From contig NC_073388.1 in NCBI RefSeq assembly GCF_028641065.1, forward strand, positions 15,128,001-15,192,000: a stretch of 64,000 bases of DNA, given 5' to 3'. A program made the translations under genes and the position numbers. The DNA comes from Leucoraja erinacea. Its lineage: Eukaryota. The notes under the pieces were generated by a model. That model did not search any database. It worked only from the letters and a program-made list of their open reading frames with translations, and was not told the DNA's origin. Below are positions 3,545 through 53,086 of this stretch, one piece after another. Numbering within the stretch: the stretch's first letter is position 1; each line of letters begins with the position of its first letter.

Positions 3545-4200
3545 AAAAGGACAAAGGACAAAGGACATTTATTGTCACATGCACCAATTGGTGCAGTAAA
3601 ATTTGAGTTACCGTGCAGCACACAAATAAGATACTCAGCACTATAGAATTTAACCAGAAAACATGAAAAACATCCCCTCCCCACAGCAGAATCAATGTTT
3701 CCCACTGTGAGGGAAGGCAACAAAGTTCAGTCCTCTTCCTCTTGTTCACCCGTGGTCGGAGCCTATAGAGGCCTCCGCAGTCGTTGCAACGGTGGTGCGA
3801 TGTTTCAGGCCCTCTCGCCGGGATGATGGAGCTCCGACGTCGGAACAGAGAACACTCTCAGCGGCCTGGAGTTCCGAAACGGCAGCTTCCATAGTCCACA
3901 GGCCGAGCTGGGCAGAGCTCCAACACTGGCGATCCACAGCGAAAGATCCCGCAGGTACGGGATACTGAGTTGGATGATCAGCCATGATCATATTGAATGG
4001 CGGTGCAGGCTCGAAGGGCCGAATGGCCTACTCCTGCACCTAATGTCTATGTTTCTATCCCAGGCCTCCGTGATGTTAAAGTCAGCACCACCCACAGCTG
4101 GAAGCTCCACAGACCACAGCTCCTCGGTGTTAAACAGCAGACCCAACGCTCCGGAGTTCCAACACGGCGATCCAGGTAAGGCATCGTCCCGCTCCGCGAT
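3545..4200 (-). mobile_element. GC-rich non-coding retroelement with Rex1-like 3' tail; a CR1 3' tail is nested at about 3952-4057 (+)
   Basis: Minus-strand end ...GTGACAATAAA(TGTCCTT)n and a CpG-rich body. The nested CR1 tail ends TCTATGTTTCT with ATCCC on both sides. Confidence 0.6.
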
Positions 4201-4929
4201 GATCATTCAGTGCTGAGAATGGAAGGCCATAAAGTGTAGGATGAGCAATATATAACAAGGAAAACTTACAATATGTAACACTGGGAAAGGAGATTACCCC
4301 CCAAGGAACTGATTTGTCCAGTTAGTTCATGTTTTAATTAAAAATAAGAATTGTCAAAAAGAAGAACAGAGATATGAACACAGCTATTCATCTCAATATT
4401 CTGCAAAATGAATAAGCATCCCCACCATCAGGATGCCTTTCAAGGACAAATGCCTCTGGCAGGATACAAATGAACAGTTTGCAAAGAACTATGATTCATT
4501 TCTCACTCTCCTTGCCCCAGTGCTGCAAACTATCCAATTTTCAGGGTGCTGTCATGACCCAAACTGGTCATGTTGGTCAGTTCACAAAAACGTTGCTGGC
4601 TATTATTTCCACGTCACACGTCACACGTCACAAAAGATAACATCAGGGAATGAGTAGATTAACGCAGAATTACATAGCTTCTTTTGCAGACTGCAATTAA
4701 ATGGTTGAGTTGGAGAATAATTGCAGAGTCTGTCCATATCTGCGTTCCAATTTTGGGTAGAAACTCAGAAATTAGAGCTTACTGTATAACAAGAGTCAAG
4801 AGTGTTTTATTGTCATATGTCCCAAACAAAACAATGAGATTTTGACTTGCAGCAGCACAACAGAATATTCTGTTCATATCACTCATTAGCATCTTCTAAT
4901 CACAACCAAAAGTGGGCCATTGTGTGCCC

Positions 4930-11217: not shown

Positions 11218-12388
11218 TCAGGCTCATATGTCAGGCTGTTATTCATCAATTACACAATCATCCCCTCCAAGCTCGTTACCAAACTCGCAGAACTGGGTCT
11301 CTGCGCATCCCTCTGCAATTGGATCCTCGACTTCCTCATTCACATGCCACAGTCTGTTCGTATTGGTGGAAATGTGTCAGCCTCGATAACAATCAGCACG
11401 GGAGCACCTCAAGGCTGCGTGCTCAGCCCCCTGTTGTACTCACTCTATACTCATGACTGCGTAGCGAGTCACAGTGCGAACTCCATCATCAAGATCGCTG
11501 ACGACACCACTGTTGTGGGACGTATCACTGATGGGGATGAGTCAGAGTATAGAAGAGAGATCGAGTAACTGTCCATATGGTGCCAGCGCAATAACCTTGC
11601 CCTCAACACCAGCAAAACCAAGGAAACTGATTGTGGACTTTGGAAGGAGTAGGAGGGGGTCCCACAGCCCCATTTATATCAACGGGTCGATGGTTGAAAG
11701 GGTCAAGAGCTTCAAATTCCTGGGTGTGCACATCTCTGAAGATCTTTCCTGGTCCGAGAACACTAATGCAAGTATCAAGAAAGCTCATCAGCACCTCTAC
11801 TTCCTGAGAAGATTACGGAGAGTCGGTTTGTCAAGGAGGACTCTCTCTAACTTCTACAAGTACACAGTAGAGAGCATGCTGACTGGTTGCATCGTGGCTT
11901 GGTTCGGCAATTTGAGCGCCCTGGAGAGGAAAAGACTACAAAAAGTAGGAAACACTGCCCAGTCCATCATCGGCTCCGACCTTCCTTCCATCGAGAGGAT
12001 TTATCGCAGTCGCTGCCTCAAAAAGGCTGGCAGTATCATCAAAGACCCACACCATCCGGGCCACACACTCATCTCCCCACTACCTTCAGGTAGAAGGTAC
12101 AGGAGCCTGAAGACTGCAACAACCAGGTTCAAGAATAGCTACTTCCCCACAGCCATCAGGTTATTAAACCTGGCTTGGACAAAACTCTGATTATTAATAA
12201 TCCATTATCTGTTATTTGCACTTCATCAGTTTATTTATTCATGTGTGTATATATTTATATTATGGTATATAGACACACTTATCTGTTTTGTCGTAAATGC
12301 CTACTATGTTCTGTGTGCTGAAGCAAGCAAGAATGTCATTGTCCTATACAGGGACACATGACAATAAACTCACTTGACCTTGAACTTG
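11218..12388 (+). mobile_element. Rex1/Babar-type LINE, 5'-truncated RT pseudogene
   Basis: [40 protein letters not shown]. Internal stop and frameshift near 11568-11630. 3' end GACAATAAA plus a CTTGA-like tail. Confidence 0.9.
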
Positions 12389-13944: not shown

Positions 13945-15570
13945 GGCGGCATGGTAGAGATTGCTGCCTTACAGCGCCAGAGATCCACGTTCAATCTTGA
14001 CTACGAGTGCTGTCTACATGGAGTTTGTACATTCTCCCCGTGACCTGCTTGAGTTTTCTCCAGGAGCTCTGGTTTCCTCCCACACTCCAGAGCGTACAGG
14101 TTTGTAGGCTAACTCACATGGTCAAATGTAACTTGTCCCTGGTGTGGGTAGGATAGTGTTAGAATTCAATGCAATTCAATTCAATTCAACTTTAATGTCA
14201 TCGCACAAATACAAGTATGAGTACAACGAAATGCAGTTTTGCTTCAGTCCGTAGTAGTTGTACATAAAGAAAAAAAAAAAAAAAATAGAAAGAGAGAAGA
14301 TACAGAATAATCAAGAAATACAGAATAATTAAACAATGGGGACGGAGGGACCAGAGAAATCTATCGGCGGGACTCCGAGTTCAGCAATGTGATTGTATTG
14401 TTGTAGAAGCTGTTCCTCATCCTACTAGTACGTGATCTGAGGCTCCTGTACCGCCTCCCTGATGGGAGGAGGGCAAACAGTCCATGGTTGGGGTGTGAGG
14501 GGTCTTTGATGATCTTCCCAGCCCGTCTCAGACACCGTTTTCAGTGGAGGGCATCCATGGCAGGGAGCGGGGCACCGATGATGTGCTGCACGGTTTTCAC
14601 CACCCGTTGTAGTGCCTTCCTGTCCGCAGCAGCGCAGCTGCTGTACCATACCGTGAAGCAGGTGGTCAGGATACTCTCTATGGTACAGCGGTAAAAGTTG
14701 GTCAGGATCCGGGGGGACAGGTGGGCTTTCTTGAGCCTCCTCAGGAAGTAAAGGCGCTGCTGTGCCTTTTTGATCAGCTTGGAGGTGTTGAGGGACCAGG
14801 ACAAATCCTCCGAGATATGTACTCCGAGGAATTTATAGCTGGAGACGCGCTCCACCTCAGTCCTGTTTATATGGATGGGGGTATGACTGCCTCCTCTGGT
14901 CTGCTTGAAGTCAACAATAATCTCCTTCGTCTTCTTGGAGTTGAGGACGAGGTTATTGTTGGCACACCAGGCTGTCATGTGCTGGATCTCCTCCCTGTAG
15001 GCTGACTCATCGTTGTCGCTGATCAGTCCTACTACCGTGGTATCGTCAGCAAACTTAATAATGGCGTTGGATCCGTACTTTGGGATGCAGTCGTGGGTGA
15101 AGAGGGAGTAGAGTAGAGGGCTGAGCACACAGCCCTGTCGCACTCTGGTGTTCAGTGTTATAGTGGAGGAGGTGAGATTATTGACCCTAACAGACTGTGG
15201 TCTGTTAGTAAGGAAGTCCAATGTCCAGTTGCAGAGGGAGGTGGAGATGCCAAGTCCACTGAGTTTGGTGATCAAGCTGGTGGGGATGACGGTGTTAAAG
15301 GCAGAGCTGAAGTCAATGAACAGCAGCCTGATGTAGGAGTTGTTGTAGTCCAGGTGGGTCAGGGCAGAGTGTAGGGCCACCGATATGGCGTCCTCTGTAG
15401 ACCTGTTGGTCCGGTAGGCAAACTGATGGGGGTCCAGTGTGGGGGGTGAGGCATGCTTTGAGGTGAGCCAAGATCAGCCGCTCAAAGCACTTTGCAAATG
15501 CGGAGATTGCTGGTCGGCGCGGACCAAAGGGCCTGTTTCTGCTCTGTATCTCTAAACTAAACTAACCTAA
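13945..15570 (+). mobile_element. HE1/V-SINE split by a Rex1 insertion (13945-14160 and 15496-15570)
   Basis: Head and core precede 14160; the tail AAGGGCCTGTTTC...TCTCTAAACTAAA follows 15496. Confidence 0.8.
14162..15495 (-). mobile_element. Rex1/Babar-type LINE, 5'-truncated
   Basis: ORF 14541-15380(-): [35 protein letters not shown]. (TTGAA)n tail at 14162-14190. Confidence 0.92.
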
Positions 15571-28809: not shown

Positions 28810-30116
28810 AACCCCTTTTTCACTGGGCGACTTGACGCAAGAGGTAACCAGAGTTTAACATCATGGGAACCTCGTGCGATAACAGTACGGCATTCGTGGA
28901 CCACCGTGGCGCTAACGGCAGGTACTCGTGTAACTAGGGTATTCGGGAGAAAATTCAAGCCAGCTTGAATTTCTCCAAGAGTGACTTGTACACTTGTAGC
29001 TGAGCATTGCAACATTTTATGAACGTAGTGGCCAGTGCGATATCCGTAATAACTCTTGCGGTTACCGTGGGAACTCCTGCGAACGGTGAACCCGGAAGCT
29101 GGACAGATGGGACAGAAGGTGAGTAAAAAAGGTGGTCTCAATATCGACAATGGAACATGTGTCCATCGAGGACGTCCCACCTCATTGTCATTGTTGGAGA
29201 ATCTTTTTAACAGGAACACGCAGAGATGGCTCCCAGAAAAGCTCAAAGAAAGGGGGTAAAGCATGTCAGAAAGGTTTTTGCCATGCAGCAGAATGAGGAG
29301 GAGACGCAGCAAGAGAGACAGGTGGAGAGGCAACAGGAGATGCCAGAGATAACACTGCCTGTGGGCTCCTTGGAGCAGGGAGAGGGTGAGCAAGGTGGAT
29401 TTCAGATTGCCTCCCCAGTAGCCGTTGTAGGAATAGCCTCTACAGACGCTTATGTAAAGGGAAGATGGCAGAAGGTAAGGCCATATAACTTCTCCAGGGA
29501 ACAAGAGGGGGAACTTGTAGAATGGTACCAATTTAACGAGATTCTCTACGATAAATCCAGAGAGGATTACAGAAACAGGGAGAGAAAACGGAACCTGCTG
29601 GAGACGAAGGCTGCGGAGTATCCCGGGTGCTCATGTGAGTGTATATATAACGATATATTAGTACATCAACAGGAAAACCATTTAATGTTATCCATGATTT
29701 AAAAACATACAATGCTATAGATGTAAAAGTGCTGTTTTTGCAGTTAACTTAAACTTCTCTTATAAGTCTGTCTGTGCCCTGCAGCTGCAAAGTAAAACAG
29801 TCACAGACAGCTTTTACACGCTCTGTGTTTGAGGTTGGAATCATGTCTCTAAGAGCCATAAAATAAATTATGACATCATTTGTGCCACGTGATGATTTAA
29901 TTGCACTTGACAGTTTACAATGCTCATTCAAGATTTAACGGGAAACCTCGGGAGATGGACAAGTCACTCGCACAAATAACAGAAATGCCGAGTACCGTGG
30001 GAACTCTGTCTACCCCCCCCCCCCCCCCCCCCGTTATATCGCGTGATATCGTGCTAGACCACGACCACTTTACTCTGGTCACATCTTGTGTCAAGTCGCC
30101 CCGTGAAAAAGCCCCA
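28810..30116 (+). mobile_element. PIF/Harbinger-like deletion derivative carrying a MADF/Myb-SANT ORF
   Basis: About 40-bp TIRs (TTTTTCACTGGGCGACTTGACGCAAGAGGTAACCAGAGT versus the reverse complement at the right end), ATA/TTA flanks, inserted in a minus-strand CR1 tail. Confidence 0.8.
29226..29702 (+). CDS. MADF/Myb-SANT-like DNA-binding protein, probable first exon (transposon accessory gene)
   Basis: FSREQEGELVEWYQFNEILYDKSREDYRNRERKRNLLETKAAE fits the MADF pattern. A GTGAGT donor at 29635 suggests the exon ends at 29634. Confidence 0.7.
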   Translation: MAPRKAQRKGVKHVRKVFAMQQNEEETQQERQVERQQEMPEITLPVGSLEQGEGEQGGFQIASPVAVVGIASTDAYVKGRWQKVRPYNFSREQEGELVEWYQFNEILYDKSREDYRNRERKRNLLETKAAEYPGCSCECIYNDILVHQQENHLMLSMI

Positions 30117-34419: not shown

Positions 34420-37400
34420 TCCAAAGGGAGAACAGGCAGGGAGAGGCTAATGAATATGGTGGAACTGGTGGGCCGACGTGGGCCTGTTTCAATACAAGGT
34501 GTATCATAGGTAAAGCAGATTAACAGAGCCTGCATCAGTGCATTGAACTCTGATGTTGTGGCCATTCAGAGACTAAGTTGTGAGAGGCACCAGACTGGCG
34601 GCTCAACGTCCCAGGGTTTTGACATTTCAGATGTGATACAGAGGTGGCAGAGTTGCAATACTAACTGGGGGGATGTCATTGCACCATTCAGAGGAGACAC
34701 ACTGGTGGTTGCATCCTACTGAGGCCACATAGGTGAAACACAAAAGTAAGAAAGGTGCAGTCATTCTAATGGGGTTGTAATACAGGCCTCTCAACCGCTT
34801 GTGGTAGAATAGAGGAACAGATAATGTAGACAGATTACAGAACAATGTAAAAGCAAACAGTTGGGTGACTTTAGCTTTTCCAAAATGAACTGAGACTTCC
34901 TCAGTGTAAAGGACTTAAACATAATAGAATTTGTCAGCCGCATCCAAGAGTATTACCTTATGCAGAATGTTGATAACACAACCTTGAGAAGGGGCCATAC
35001 TGGACCTTGCATTAGGAAACGAGTCTGGCCAGGTAACTGGTGTTTCAGTAAAAGACCATTTTGGGACAGTTTTAAGATATTTATGAGTAAGGATAAGTCT
35101 GGACATTAGGGGAAGATACTGAATTGGGGTAAAGCCAATTACAACATTATTAAACAGGAGCTAGGGGGAGTAAATTGGCAGCAGCTGTTATTCCTCTCCC
35201 ATCTGGACAGCCAGAAGGGGGGGGGCTACGTGAGGATGCTGTTCATAGACTACAGTTCAGCCTTCAACACGATAGTCCCCACCAGACTGGCCGGGAAGCT
35301 AATGGAATTAGGGCTCAACACCTCCCTGTGTGCCTGGGTCCTGGACTTTCTCACCGCCAGGCCCCAGGTAGTCAAGATGGGAGGGAATACATCGAAGTCC
35401 CTCACCCTGAGCACAGGATCGCCCCAGGGTTGCGTCCTCAGCCCCCTATTGTACTCCCTGTACACACATGACTGTGTGGCTAGGTTCAGCTCCAATTCAA
35501 TAATTAAGTTTGCTGATGACACTGTGGTGGTGGGCCTGATCTCAGACAATGATGAGAGGGCCTACCGGGAGGAGGTGGCTGATCTAGCACTCTGGTGCCA
35601 GGAGAACAGCCTCCTCTTGAACATCAAAAAAACGAAGGAGCTGATCATGGACTTTAGGAGGGCACATCATCCGAGGACGTACACGCCATTGAGGATAAAT
35701 GGGGATCCTGTGGATAGGGTGAACTGTTTTAAATATCTGGGAGTCCACATCTCCGAGGATATGACATGGTCATCACACGCCTCAGCACTGGTGAGTAAGG
35801 CAAGGCAGCGCCTTTACCACCTCAGGCCATTGAGGAAATTTAGAGTGTCTACGAGGATCCTACAGTGCTTCTACGCAGCGGCGGTGGAAAGCATCTTGTC
35901 CGGGAACATTACCATCTGGTTCGGGAATTGCTCTGCCAAGGACAAGAAGGCTCTGCAGAGAGTAGTGCGTTCGGCCGAACGCACTATGGGAACTTCACTC
36001 ACCCCCCTGCAGGAACTATACAACAGGAGGTGCAAATCCAGAGCAAACAAAATCATGATAGACCTCTTCCACCCCTGCAACGGACTGTTCCAGCCGTTAC
36101 GGTCAGGCAAACGCCTCCGTTGCCATGCAGTGAGAACGGAGAGGTTGAGAAGGAGTTTCTTCCCAGAGGCAATTCGGACTGTAAACGCCTTACTCACCAG
36201 GGACTAACTATACAGAACGTTTTTCCTTCTATTATTTATTATGTAAAATAATATGTGTGTTATGATTGTGTTTATAATTTGTTTGGTTGTTTTGTTGTTC
36301 CGCGAGCATTGCCACTTTCATTTCACTGCACATCTCGTATGTGTATGTGACAAATAAACTTGACTTGACTTGACTTGATTAGATACGTCCGCATCAGATA
36401 TATAGGAGTAATTTAGAGATCAGCTGATTCGGGTTCAGGACTGGCATGTTCCAGTAATGTGGAGGAATAAGAATGGCAAGGGAAGGACACTTTGGAAGAC
36501 CAGAGAGGTTGTAGATTTGATCAAAAAGAATATATAAGGTTTAGGAAGATAATAAATTCAGACAAAGTCTTTGAGGATTAAGCACGATAGGCAGGTAATT
36601 AGAAGGGTCAAAGGATCCTTGTAAGGTCATTGGTAAATTGGATGAAAGAAAATCCCATGTTTTTTTATACATACATTTAAAACAAGCGAGTAATTAGGGA
36701 GAAGGTTAGATCATGCAAGGAAGGTGGAAATTTATGCTTGGAGTCTGAGGAACAAGGTGAAGTGCCTTTCATCAGTATCCACCAAGGAGGAGATAAGGTG
36801 GATAGTGATAACATGCTAGGTCAGTTTGAAATCAAGAAGGAGGTGGTGTTGGGTTTCATGAAGAGCATTAATGTGGACATAATCATCCCAAGGACATAAT
36901 GGGATCTAGTCCATGTTATTGAGAGAGGCAAGAGAGGAGATACAATGATCTTTGTATCCTGTCTTGCCACAGGCGACGTCACGGAGGACTGGAGAGGAGC
37001 CAATGTTGCTCCTTTGTTTACGAAGGGAAGTAGAGATAATCCAGGATATTATCGGCTTGATGGAAGAAGATTTTTGGGGTAGAATTCACTTGCATTTGGA
37101 AGAGAATGGGATAATTATGAACAGTCTGCATGGCTTTGCACAGGGCACATCATGGTTCATTAATTTGACTGTTTTGAGGAATAGACAAAGATGATTGATG
37201 AGGATAAAGCACTGGATGTTGGCTACTTGGATTTTGATTAAAGTCTCACTCACTTTGTAAGATGATCCAAAAGATAAAGATGCATGGGATCCATATTACT
37301 TGGTAATTTGGATTTAGATCGGGCTTACCCATACAAGATGGTGGGTTGTGTGGAAGGATGTTATTCTGGCTGGAGGTCTGTGACCAATGAAGTTCTTTAG

Positions 37401-45649: not shown

Positions 45650-47880
45650 TATGACACCAGGACAAACATGAGTCCCAGTATGATCACTCGGACATCCGTC
45701 GACTGTGGCAAGGCCTGAATACTATAACTGGCTGCAAAGTAAATTCAAGCTACATCACTGGTAATAGCGTGGCACTCCCTGGTGAACTTGATGCATTTTA
45801 GGCTCACTTTGATCACAAGGCCAGCAGGGTGATGACACCGGTCCCATCATACTCGAGTGCACCTTTTCCTAGAAGCTGTTGCAGAGTTAGATTGGCCTTC
45901 CTGAGGGTGAAGCCACGGAAAGCAACTGGTCCAGATGGAGTCCCTGGTCGCATCCATAGGAACTGTGGGACCGACTAGTGGAAGTGTTCACAGACATAAG
46001 TAATCTCTCCAAACTCCATTCTGAGATACCCAGCTGCTTCAAGAACACCTTAGCCTTGGTGTCAAAGAAAAGCAAGATCTCATGCCTTAATGACTACCAT
46101 CTAGTAGCCTTGATGTCCACCATCATGAAGTGCTTTGAGAGGCTGGTTATGGCACACATTAAATCAAGCCTACTAAGGAACGTTGATCAACTGCAGTTCA
46201 CCTACTGCCACAACAGGTCCATAGCTGATATCATCTCCCTTTTCCTGCACTCATCACTGGAACACTTGGATAACAAGGACACCTACATCAGACAACTATT
46301 CATAGACATGTAGGAAAGAACTGCAGATGCTGGTTTTCACCGTAGATAGACACAAAATGCTGGAGTAGCTCAGCAGGTCAGGCAGCATCTCTGGAGAAAA
46401 GAAATAAGGGTTTCAACCCGAAACATCACCGATTCCTTTTCACCAGAGATGCTACCTCACCTGCTGTGTTACAGTACTTCAGCATTTTGTGCCTTGTCCT
46501 ATTCGTAGACTACTGCTCTGCTTTCAATACCATCATCACAACCAAGACCATCTTCAAACTGGTGGAACTTGGAGTCAGCACTCCTCTCTGCAACTGTATC
46601 CTCGACTTCCTGCCCAACAGACCAAAATCAGTGAGGATAGGTCACAAATCATCCTCTACGATAATCCTCGCCACTGGTTCCCCACAAGGATATATTCTCA
46701 ACCCCCTGTTATATTTCGTAAACATTCATGATTGTGCAACCAAATACCAATCCAACTCAATTTACAGGTTTGTAGACGACATTACAGTGGCGGGCCAGAT
46801 ATCAAATAATGATAAGTTAAGTACAGGAAGGAGATTAAGAACATCGTAAGACACCAAACAAGTCCTTAAAGTTGCAAGACAAATGTGGTTGTGATTGACT
46901 TCAGGATGTACAGTAAAACAGTACACACACGCTGGTATACATTGATTGTGCTGAAGTTGAAAGCTTCAAGTTCTTAGGAATAAATATCCCCAGCAATTTG
47001 GCCTGGACCAGCCACCTCAAAGCTATGGCCAAGAAAGGAACACCTACTTCCTGAGAAGGCTTAGGAAATATGGTCATCACCAATAACCCCCTCCAACTTC
47101 TAAAGCCAATAGAACGGAGACGAGGAAACACTTCTTCACACAGAGAGTTGTGAGTCTGTGGAATTCCCTGCCTCAGAGGGCGGTGGAGGCTGGCCCTCTG
47201 GATACTTTCAAGAGCAAGCTAGATACAGCTCTTAAAGATAGCGGGGTCAGGGGATATGGGGGAGAAGGCAGGAACAGGGTACTGATTAGGGATAATCAGC
47301 CATGATCACATTGAATGGCGGTGCTGGCTCGAAGGGCCGAATGGCCTACTCCTGCACCTATTGTCTATTGACTTTTGTCTATAAAGCATTTTATCAGAAT
47401 GCACCACATCATGGTTTGGGAACAGCTCCATCCAAGACCACATTAAATTACAGAGAATTGTCAACGTAGCTCAGACCATCACTCGAACCAACCTCCCTTT
47501 CATTGACTCCAACCCCACTTCACACTGCTTCTGCAAGGCCACCAACATAAGCAAAGACCAGTCTCACCACAGGTACTCCCTTTTCTCCCTTCTTCCACCA
47601 CAAAAAAGGTACAGAAGTTTAAAAACGCATACTTCCAGATTCAGGGACAGTTTCTTCCCAGTTGTTGTCAGGCAACTGGATTGTCCTTTCACCAGCTGGA
47701 GTTGGTCTTGAATCAGACTTTATTGGACTGTATCTTGCACTAAATGTTGCACCCTTTATCCTGTATCTGTACACTGTGGATGGCTTGATTGTAATCATGT
47801 ACAGTCTTTTCTTTGACTAGATAGCATGCAGCAAAAGCTTTTCACTGTACCTCAGTACATGCAACAATAATAATTCAACT
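45650..47880 (+). mobile_element. Decayed Rex1/Babar-type LINE with nested insertions
   Basis: [45 protein letters not shown]; 3' UTR at 47700-47880; nested CR1 at about 47100-47372. Confidence 0.88.
46308..46498. mobile_element. Fold-back Penelope-derived element inside the Rex1 RT
   Basis: TSD CTATTCATAGAC (46296-307) / CTATTCGTAGAC (46499-510); inverted arms meet at GGGTTTCAACCCGAAAC. Confidence 0.85.
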
Positions 47881-50806: not shown

Positions 50807-52641
50807 CCACGTCACATGTGCCAGGGTCTTCAGTGATGCACTGAGAAAGGCCTATGCTTGAAGTCCCCATGACAGCTGTAGCAGCTGGCAAAGCACTGTT
50901 AGCCCACTGTCGAATCTCTGAAGAGTTTTAAATGCTGTTCAATGCCCCTGACATTCACTCAACATTATAAAAACATGATTTCAAATAAGCAAATGTTTGA
51001 AATATCTTCTATAATTTTATTCATCATTCAAATGCTGGTTTTATCAAGCAAACTCCATTTATAAAGGAAGATCACATATTGGCAGTACAGAAGCACTGCT
51101 AAAGGAAATATGACCCTCAATGCGACCGTTTCCCTTTCAAGTTCTACCTTATTTATGTAAATTATTCATAGTTATGAATTTACATGGTTACCATGGTGAT
51201 GACAGTTCTCTGTAACCCTCTCTCCTAAACCTAATCAATCCTTATCGACAGTAGAGTTGCAAACATGAATCTGGACATTCAGTATCTGTATCTGCTTTAA
51301 TCCACAGAGGCTTGAAAAGGATTTGCTGCAGAGATGTAGTGTAGTGAAGTCTTGCTTGGGCGTACGGACAGCTCAGTGAGTTAAAGCATTGCCCTGTCAC
51401 AGTTCCAAAAATGTAGAATAGGAATAGGAATACTTTATTGTCACATGTGACTAGGCACAGTGAGATTCTTTGCCTTGCATTCGCAATGTATACAAATAGC
51501 AGACAAAGTTACAAAGCATGCTGGTTCCCCCTCTTGTCCCCCACTCCCCTTCCCCCCTCAACAGTTCCCCCACACTGAATCCCCATTGTCCTTTGTCCCC
51601 TCCCCCCTCTTGTCCATTTCTCTCCCCCCCCCATGCCAGGTCCTCCATTGCTCTTCCTCCTACATAAGAGATGAATCTCTCATTTCACTCTGTTGGTAGC
51701 AAGAACCTAATGTGAAATGTGTCTGTGATGGTCTCAATCCAATTCCTAACTGATAAAGAAAAACATAAGGATGATTGACTTGGCACTCAGCTGTGAGTCA
51801 GCAAAGCTGAAAACACATGAAATGCCCTTTGAAACGTCTTTCCCATTTAAAGATTTTTTTCAGCGCTATGTTCCCATTCCCACGATTCTGAAATTATACC
51901 CAGGTCTTTTTTCGCAGAGTTTCAAATGTGGAATTCTTTATATCCCTACTGGTCTAGTCATGCATTAATTAGTTAGAAATTAAAAAAAAAAATCAAGTCC
52001 ATTCAATCTTTGGGTTATGTTGTACAATGTCTTTCCAAGCTGGCTTCCGAGAAAAAAGATTTTCACATCACAAGCAATCTAGACATGTAATGGCAAAAAA
52101 AAGACACAAAGTGCTGGAGTAACTCAGCGGGTCAGGCAGCATCCCCGGAACGCATGAGTAGATGAAATTTTGGGTGGGGACCCTTTTTATTTGGGATTGG
52201 TATTGGTTTATTATTATCATATGTACCAAGATACAATGAAAAATCTTTTCTCTGCATCGATTTAAATCAATGGCGTGCTATCCATTTAAATCATCCACAC
52301 ATGATTCTAATCAAACCATATATGAACGCAGCAGGTAGTGAAATAAGAGATAACAAATAAATAACAACATAGAATATAGTTTAATTTAACATAGTTTAGA
52401 GATACAGTGTGGAAACAGGCCCACCGAGCCCACACTGACAAGCGATCACCATTAAACTAATTCTACCCTACACTCCGGGGACAATTTATAGAAGTCAGTT
52501 AACCTAAACTGCATATCTTTGGAATGTGGGAAGGAACTAAAGTACCTGGAGAAACCCACACGGTCATAAGGAGAACGTGCAAACTCCGTACAGACAGCAC
52601 CCACAGTCATGATCAAAGTAAGACAGCAACTCTATCTCTGC

Positions 52642-52695
52642 GGGGTGGGAGATTGCAACCTTCACGTGGTCCACCCTGTTTCAACGAATGCAATC
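52642..52695 (+). ncRNA. Minimal HDV/CPEB3-like self-cleaving ribozyme
   Basis: P1 GGGGUGG/CCACCCU with G1-U wobble, P2 GAUUGCA/UGCAAUC, P3 ACC/GGU, L3 UUCACGU, J1/4 GU, vestigial P4, J4/2 CGAA with the putative catalytic C at 52685. Confidence 0.88.
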
Positions 52696-52780
52696 AACCT
52701 GGCGTGCACAAACAGAAGATCAAACAGAACAAGTTGTCTTACAACTTTAGGCTGTGCACGCCATACGCAAGAAGAAGAAG
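52642..52780 (+). mobile_element. 139-bp short retroposon with 5' HDV-like ribozyme, 3' hairpin and (AAG)n tail
   Basis: Imperfect 11-bp TSD TCTATCTCTGC (52631-41) / TCTGTCCCTGC (52781-91); tail AAGAAGAAGAAG; no pol III A/B boxes seen. Confidence 0.85.
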
Positions 52781-53086
52781 TCTGTCCCTGCGCCATTGTG
52801 TCCCCTCTGTGGTGTTATAGCTACAGAGAAAGTGCAAGTTAAGAAAATGCAGGGGCTTCAATGAGGTTAATTGGGAAATCAGGAATACATACTCAGCTTT
52901 TGAGCCGTCCTTTCAAGAGTCTGATGACAACGGGGAAGTAACTGTTCTTCAATCTGGTGGTATTTACTCTCAAGCTTTTATATCTTCTGCCCGACGGGAA
53001 AGGGGAGAAGAGGGAATAACCAGGGTGTGAGTGGTCCTTGATTATGTGGCCCACTTTCCAGGGGCGGATGGAGTAGATGGAGGATC

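Follow-up and report, generated by a model that had tools for sequence, protein, structure and literature searches.

A 139-bp element at positions 52642-52780 of the window, the 64,000-nucleotide stretch of the Leucoraja erinacea genome analysed here, is quite probably a non-autonomous derivative of a Vingi-type LINE, composed of the first 79 and the last 47 bases of that LINE and headed by a predicted P4-less HDV-type ribozyme that would likely cut before its first base, G1. The element belongs to a high-copy family that has target-site duplications and shares both of its ends with the LINE, and the fold of its head is conserved and covaries in the heads of related LINEs. The head has the following features (seen in the sequence where no other evidence is named).

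52642..52695, + strand: predicted HDV/CPEB3-type ribozyme without P4 (sequence; covarying helices in the heads of related LINEs; RNA reads with the template-switch oligo ahead of 52642)
52642-48/52671-77, + strand: P1, 7/7 pairs, with a G1·U36 wobble
52651-57/52689-95, + strand: P2, 7/7 Watson-Crick pairs
52658-60/52668-70, + strand: P3, ACC/GGU, 3/3 pairs
52661-67, + strand: L3, UUCACGU
52678-79, + strand: J1/4, GU
52680-84, + strand: 5-nt linker in place of P4
52685-88, + strand: J4/2, CGAA
between 52641 and 52642, + strand: predicted cut site, 5' of G1
52685, + strand: predicted catalytic cytosine C44, by analogy with C75 of HDV and C57 of CPEB3 (PMC4836649)

In 52642-52695, P1, P2, P3 and P1.1 form a nested double pseudoknot with the core of the HDV type (G1·U36, U20·G25 and the C that opens J4/2), where P1.1 is, in the style of CPEB3, a single C22-G37 pair plus U·U. 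Every helix named in a sequence-only reading of this DNA was found where that reading had placed it, and the CPEB3-like L3, single-pair P1.1 and CGAA to which it had pointed match the description and numbering in PMC4836649. The segment is confirmed as a fold and is a predicted HDV/CPEB3-type ribozyme without P4. RNAfold recovered P1 and P3 together with a long 3' stem-loop; the 139-mer folded no better than its shuffles (z -1.35), as can be expected since the pseudoknot is not scored. The minimum-energy fold of the window copy with 42 nt of upstream flank lost P1, a predicted misfolding. The search with Rfam models that the same reading had proposed gave a negative answer: there was no HDV or CPEB3 match to the element at E<=10, and neither the window copy nor the head of the LINE locus L199 reached the gathering threshold of RF00622 or RF00094. 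A descriptor built from the fold has a single match on the two strands of the window, which is a match by construction.

The layout of the element and its insertion site is as follows.

52631..52641, + strand: left target-site duplication, 9/11 match to the right copy
52781..52791, + strand: right target-site duplication (sequence)
52642..52720, + strand: partner LINE 5' end, element bases 1-79 (alignment with L199 and L204; eight LINE copies beginning with the shared head: L169, L172, L175, L179, L185, L188, L192, L197)
52721..52733, + strand: junction filler, bases 80-92, missing from both LINE ends
52734..52780, + strand: partner LINE 3' end, bases 93-139, with the last codons, stop, short 3' UTR and tail
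52748-50, + strand: stop codon TAG, LINE-derived
52769-80, + strand: (AAG)4 tail (sequence)
52700..52763, + strand: predicted long stem-loop with an 11-bp stem, 52700-10/52753-63 (RNAfold)
52731-37/52741-47, + strand: inner 7-bp hairpin of the long stem-loop (RNAfold)
about 52378..52800 (ends approximate), - strand: host tRNA-headed SINE (HE1-like), interrupted in its head

The 11-bp duplication matching at 9 of 11 positions and the (AAG)4 end, both described earlier, are evident in the window sequence. The left flank of the element has 134 matches in the fetched loci, i.e. the host SINE is itself high-copy, and the loose-end consensus of other copies also supports it. The earlier placement in an HE1 SINE holds as far as a high-copy tRNA-headed SINE is concerned; the name HE1, listed as a shark and ray V-SINE (PMC3747384), fits the published listing by description alone. 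Elsewhere in the window, 11465-12190, 14541-15473, 35110-36207 and 46346-46849 are reverse-transcriptase ORF fragments of other LINE families, and a 163-codon open frame lies at 29211-29702.

The element's family is large: allowing one mismatch, a 22-nt pattern from the head has 10,233 matches in the genome and none in a reversed control, which answers the earlier call for a genome-wide count, and a 30-nt pattern has 4,597 exact genomic matches. A DNA search with the element yielded 3,145 candidates, of which the 40 that were scored are 98-100% identical to it, and near-identical copies occur under several organism labels (share 1.00, 14 runs, 5 labels). The read alignments covered the runs X15, X19, X22 and X23. 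The 5' ends stack at G1, as they had been predicted to do. In a sample of 90 loci, 60 picked with the head in the query and 30 by the 3' end, 77 of 85 distinct copies start within the first 4 bases; among the 56 with a clear duplication the junction is at most 1 base from G1 in 43, and the duplication is 11-12 bp long in 35. Full-length copies make up 23 of the 30 loci picked by the 3' end. Target-site duplications, a simple-repeat tail, 5'-truncated copies and independent insertions are all present as marks of target-primed reverse transcription (TPRT).

Three subfamilies are seen among the copies. Subfamily A (8 copies, 5.4% from their majority) is nearest to the LINE, subfamily B comprises 44 copies at 6.0% on the same measure, and subfamily C, with 31 copies at 1.7%, is the youngest, a sample biased in that it holds top matches only. 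The window copy belongs to C and departs from its majority solely at base 42. The three majority sequences and the LINE all keep G1·U36, U20, C22, G25, G37 and C44; their heads differ just in U5-A32, which becomes U5·G32, and at position 45. The 11-bp stem of the long stem-loop pairs the 5'-derived half of the element with the 3'-derived half and has 9, 10 and 11 possible pairs in A, B and C, respectively; the subfamily changes A61G and C59T extend it from 9 to 11 pairs, and A96T extends the inner hairpin. Such a stem is not evident in the worm element L217, the sole related element with both ends seen, so no claim is made for the clade.

A LINE with both ends in common with the element, postulated in the sequence-only reading, is present in the same genome. 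Alignment shows that the two share element bases 1-79 and 93-139, i.e. the element consists of LINE bases 1-79, a 13-base filler and the last 47 bases of the LINE; the filler likely arose when A-rich sequence directly upstream was duplicated over a short length. Joining both ends of one LINE and having no ORF, the element is a bipartite LINE derivative (SIDE). The description of the family as SINE-like has accordingly been abandoned in favour of an internally deleted LINE with no independent SINE head. A classical SINE was also rejected because the 5' end of the LINE itself serves as the head, and the Rfam scan gave no tRNA, 5S or 7SL match. The LINE end was found by a 3'-anchored pattern excluding the short element, with copies read upstream as the end of an ORF; an earlier exclusion pattern returned mainly an older subfamily, and the second one yielded the LINE end. 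The LINE-specific 3' junction pattern has 500 matches versus 4 for the control, and upstream walking led to LINE copies with the same head, in which CUAA replaces CGAA.

The partner LINE is about 3.1 kb long and has a single ORF, whose ATG lies about 115 nt after G1 and which encodes endonuclease and reverse transcriptase (RT) domains and a terminal Cys/His knuckle. Its closest full database protein, P0001 (64% identical, 1,019 aa), has endonuclease and RT only and no RNase H. This is the architecture of Vingi elements, which have a single ORF with APE and RT and without RNase H (PMC13708176). In an RT tree free of named Vingi, Ingi and RTE proteins, the partner and every ribozyme-headed element of this analysis fall into one group (24 rows, 96/97), to which the Nimb-like and Rex-like rows do not belong. 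We call the partner Vingi-type, a name given on its architecture and on the likeness of the head of a clade member, L333, to Vingi-2_Gav; of the mobilisers suggested earlier, Vingi/Ingi or RTE, Vingi is the one supported. Partner copies are about 82-92% alike. A search for an intact driver, run with a stricter preselection and with 45 of 104,068 candidates scored, returned broken partner copies alone, with a longest stop-free match of 311 codons, and no driver for subfamily C turned up among the partner copies examined.

Six of the 30 mid-LINE copies carry an inverted head beside a shortened LINE body, a physical link between the head and the RNA of the LINE. In L137, L138, L145, L149, L155, L159 and L182, all truncated, the first ~73 bases are inverted at the 5' junction, and internal inversions occur in many other LINE copies; these patterns are suggestive of twin priming or of pairing at the ribozyme end. 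The loci L095 (4120-4700), L096, L097 (3780-4620) and L098 (3930-4680) hold inserts of 0.4-1.1 kb with inverted ends, which share a GTGCACGC-like site in the 3' stem in either orientation and are possibly a target-specific DNA transposon or MITE. The top PF14529 endonuclease matches, L031-L060, were rejected as partners: they are two-ORF Nimb-like elements with the head or tail in 0 of 30, one of them holding a separately inserted copy of the element. Five of these (L035, L037, L038, L049, L054) have open frames of ~1,200 codons and near-identical copies, and represent a young, possibly active Nimb-like family.

The fold of the head is conserved beyond this genome. Related LINEs were taken as the best 80 of 356 metagenome-contig loci, many of them without a 5' end and several from one family; the descriptor matches 12 times within the 46,679 bases upstream of their endonuclease match, whereas no match occurs in 497,537 control bases, made up of 225,429 further bases in sense and 272,108 in antisense. 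Across 19 hand-picked heads P1 and P3 are paired in 93.8% of cells, against 80.0+/-1.5 for shuffled and 53-61% for slid alignments, and contain 22 double changes against 4.8 in shuffles, where cells count sequences and not evolutionary events. P3 taken at fixed offsets is paired in 45/45 cells of 15 heads; it is ACC/GGU in the element and GCG/CGC in most relatives, and the element's ACC strand would pair with just 1/3 positions in 13 of the 14 other heads. P2 also varies in sequence with its pairing kept, with counts biased by the choice of the best-matching partner, and its 3' strand was not aligned across families by MAFFT. A C opens J4/2 in 15/15 heads, as the search script required. Thus the covariation asked for earlier is found for P1 and P3, with compensatory changes, and such retention of pairing in diverging sequences suggests that RNA structure is under selection. 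That the helices are due to chance might be argued from the whole-element z-score, but this is refuted by the absence of control matches, by the matches at the homologous place in relatives and by the covariation, and we assign it a negligible probability. Among the metagenome contigs, L211-L276 contain Vingi-like LINEs of other organisms that begin with CPEB3-like heads, and three of them end in CATA(C/T)G and an AAG tail like the 139-bp family.

RNA reads suggest that element RNAs likely begin where the ribozyme is predicted to cut. Two raw single-cell runs were used, both from one study and with 1-3% of each run read; in these, 1,472 of 4,004 and 1,274 of 3,948 aligned reads carry loose letters before 52642. 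Their consensus, pooled from many copies, ends in GGG (agreement 0.71 and 0.67), has a median loose length of 31, not 30, and is what we take to be the template-switch oligo. Contigs of other runs have mixed flanks at this place (agreement 0.36), and loose ends within the host SINE are SINE sequence. An oligo adjoining G1 indicates that RNAs likely start there, and it is likely that a large share of the reads reaching the 5' boundary come from RNAs beginning at G1. A molecule-start table of the same alignment lists no starts at the element, and a capped start at G2 would give the same pattern as a start at G1. C24T has a share of 5-6% in sense and 11-13% in antisense reads, with T44, A25 and T41 staying under the 5% at which alleles are listed; since other sites swing as much as C24T, a few loci probably dominate, and allele shares were set aside.

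Reads joined to the oligo at G1 are also compatible with initiation at this base, i.e. with a Pr77-like internal promoter in the head, and in a sister clade a single stretch of 77 bases acts as promoter as well as ribozyme (PMC4035085). However, the consensus has no extra G between the GGG of the oligo and the four genomic G's, a weak argument because of the G-run, and the pairing kept across relatives despite sequence change speaks for selection on RNA structure. We therefore consider such a promoter unlikely.

Another explanation is that the fold is a vestige, no longer cleaving after the loss of P4 and serving as a cap-like 5' protection or a protein-binding site, and that the signal at G1 comes from nuclease trimming or a template-switch artefact. 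The P4 region is 5 nt long in the element and the partner LINE, whereas 14 relatives have 17-51 nt, so that the element may cleave weakly or no longer at all; P4-less HDV ribozymes are, however, known to be active (PMC10879173). The window copy has no Rfam match, and the consensus allows a 2-bp UUCG hairpin that would occupy both G37 and C44; against this stand the core positions kept in all subfamily majorities and in the LINE. Among the first 100 genomic copies listed, C44 is retained in 92 (by eye) and has no extra protection compared with other CpG cytosines (T44 in 8, A45 in 13, T41 in 10, A42 in 18), which can be counted for a vestige and is also what neutral decay after insertion would give; it lends no support to cleavage either. 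As to an artefact, template switching captures ends with and without a cap and has a bias at G-rich sites (PMC6280765), but strand invasion would hide the GGG of the oligo in the genomic G's, whereas the consensus has it in addition to them. This explanation appears to us even less probable than the promoter.

Under the preferred reading, a ribozyme-headed LINE derivative, a host Pol II transcript running through a sense copy would be cut at G1, releasing an uncapped RNA that ends at or past the AAG tail. The endonuclease/reverse transcriptase of the LINE would then bind the LINE-derived 3' end and nick DNA, and the RNA would be copied back to G1, leaving an 11-12-bp duplication. Because the element is short, most of its copies would be inserted complete and with a functional head; this would account for the approximately twentyfold excess of the element over the mostly truncated LINE.

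The heads of sister LINEs in the same genome lead to the mammalian CPEB3 ribozyme.

L333 (G000:C8:43215919-43221549), head at 4183-4267, - strand: sister LINE, passes the Rfam CPEB3 threshold
L319 and L321 (1371-1455): heads of further Vingi-like LINEs

The L333 head scores 56 bits on the Rfam CPEB3 model against a threshold of 35 bits, and 7 of 12 scanned related heads have subthreshold matches to the model, the best at 33.8 bits (E 1.7e-5). Full HDV-type heads including P4 occur in at least two other Vingi-like families of this genome, which have better kept ORFs (up to 818 stop-free codons, L325) and AAG or TAAA tails. Bases 2-74 of Vingi-2_Gav are printed in the supplement of Kojima 2018 (PMC5786205); compared by eye, this 5' end agrees with the Rfam CPEB3 consensus at 52/54 positions, 38/40 in the part that runs from P1 up to where P4 starts and 14/14 after P4. 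Vingi traces are present in the human genome (PMC5753468). On this sequence likeness, the CPEB3 ribozyme is a likely descendant of a Vingi 5' end. We lean, with somewhat less confidence than for the element itself, to a joint reading in which HDV-like ribozymes would be the standard 5' end of Vingi across animals, the 139-bp family, which lacks P4, would be the smallest of them that works, with more than 10,000 copies cutting transcripts of the host in vivo, and mammals would have domesticated a Vingi 5' end as the CPEB3 ribozyme. Compared with Vingi-2_Gav, the Vingi-derived body of the tRNA-headed SINE2-1_AMi is changed at two places in the L3 loop (PMC5786205), as expected if cleavage must be lost with a Pol III head upstream.

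Ribozyme-headed deleted LINEs are known. R2 SIDEs of Drosophila likewise combine a 5' HDV-like ribozyme with a LINE 3' end through internal deletion and use TPRT in trans (PMC3414825), but they belong to the R2 clade, are rDNA site-specific and rare, whereas the present family is dispersed and has a partner of the APE type. The trypanosomatid elements NARTc, RIME and SIDER (L1Tc/Ingi clade) are short derivatives of Ingi-group LINEs with an active HDV-like head cleaving at +1; in contrast to our element, these protist elements have a 77-nt Pr77 head with P4, a proven promoter and a partner with RNase H (PMC4035085). Vingi LINEs share with the partner the single ORF with APE and RT and without RNase H, and have bipartite non-autonomous copies (PMC5786205, PMC13708176), and Vingi-2_Gav has the same kind of head. 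The CPEB3 ribozyme (RF00622, PMC4836649) shares L3 UUCACGU, G1·U36, U20·G25, P1.1, CGAA and the numbering to U38; it is single-copy and intronic and differs in the sequences of P1, P2 and P3, and the element lacks P4 and has no model score. Minimal HDV-like and theta ribozymes share the absence of P4, but nearly 99% of them are in phages and tRNA-linked, the eukaryotes covered being human, mouse and protists (PMC10879173).

Ribozyme-headed deleted LINEs have thus been described in flies and trypanosomes; the 139-bp family itself was not found in the literature covered. A review states that some metazoan LINEs and SINEs use HDV-like ribozymes (PMC6765202). The accessible text of PMC5786205 names six clades with 5' ribozymes (R1, R2, R4, RTE, Ingi, LOA), Vingi not being among them, and notes no ribozyme for the printed Vingi 5' end. 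The accessible parts of the literature on a retrotransposon origin of CPEB3 (PMC10919898, PMC8256844 and a 2026 preprint) contain no CPEB3-Vingi link, and PMC8233481 has none of the relevant terms. Vingi ribozymes, P4 loss in animals and the CPEB3-Vingi link were not found in the literature covered, which did not extend to Kojima 2011, Ruminski 2011, Webb 2009, Repbase, Dfam, patents and bioRxiv supplements.

If these conclusions are true, Vingi joins the LINE clades that use self-cleavage, and a vertebrate offers an HDV ribozyme that lacks P4 by nature, in thousands of naturally occurring variants and with an RNA read-out. Since a named Vingi 5' end is near-identical to the CPEB3 consensus, the origin of the CPEB3 ribozyme can be tested directly. 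Gene-insertion tools now being developed from Vingi elements use RNAs that retain the native 5' UTR (PMC13708176), so that a ribozyme at this place, as well as a natural minimal template of 139 nt, would be of practical use. For the skate, it would mean that a genome tolerates more than 10,000 potential cut sites in its own transcripts.
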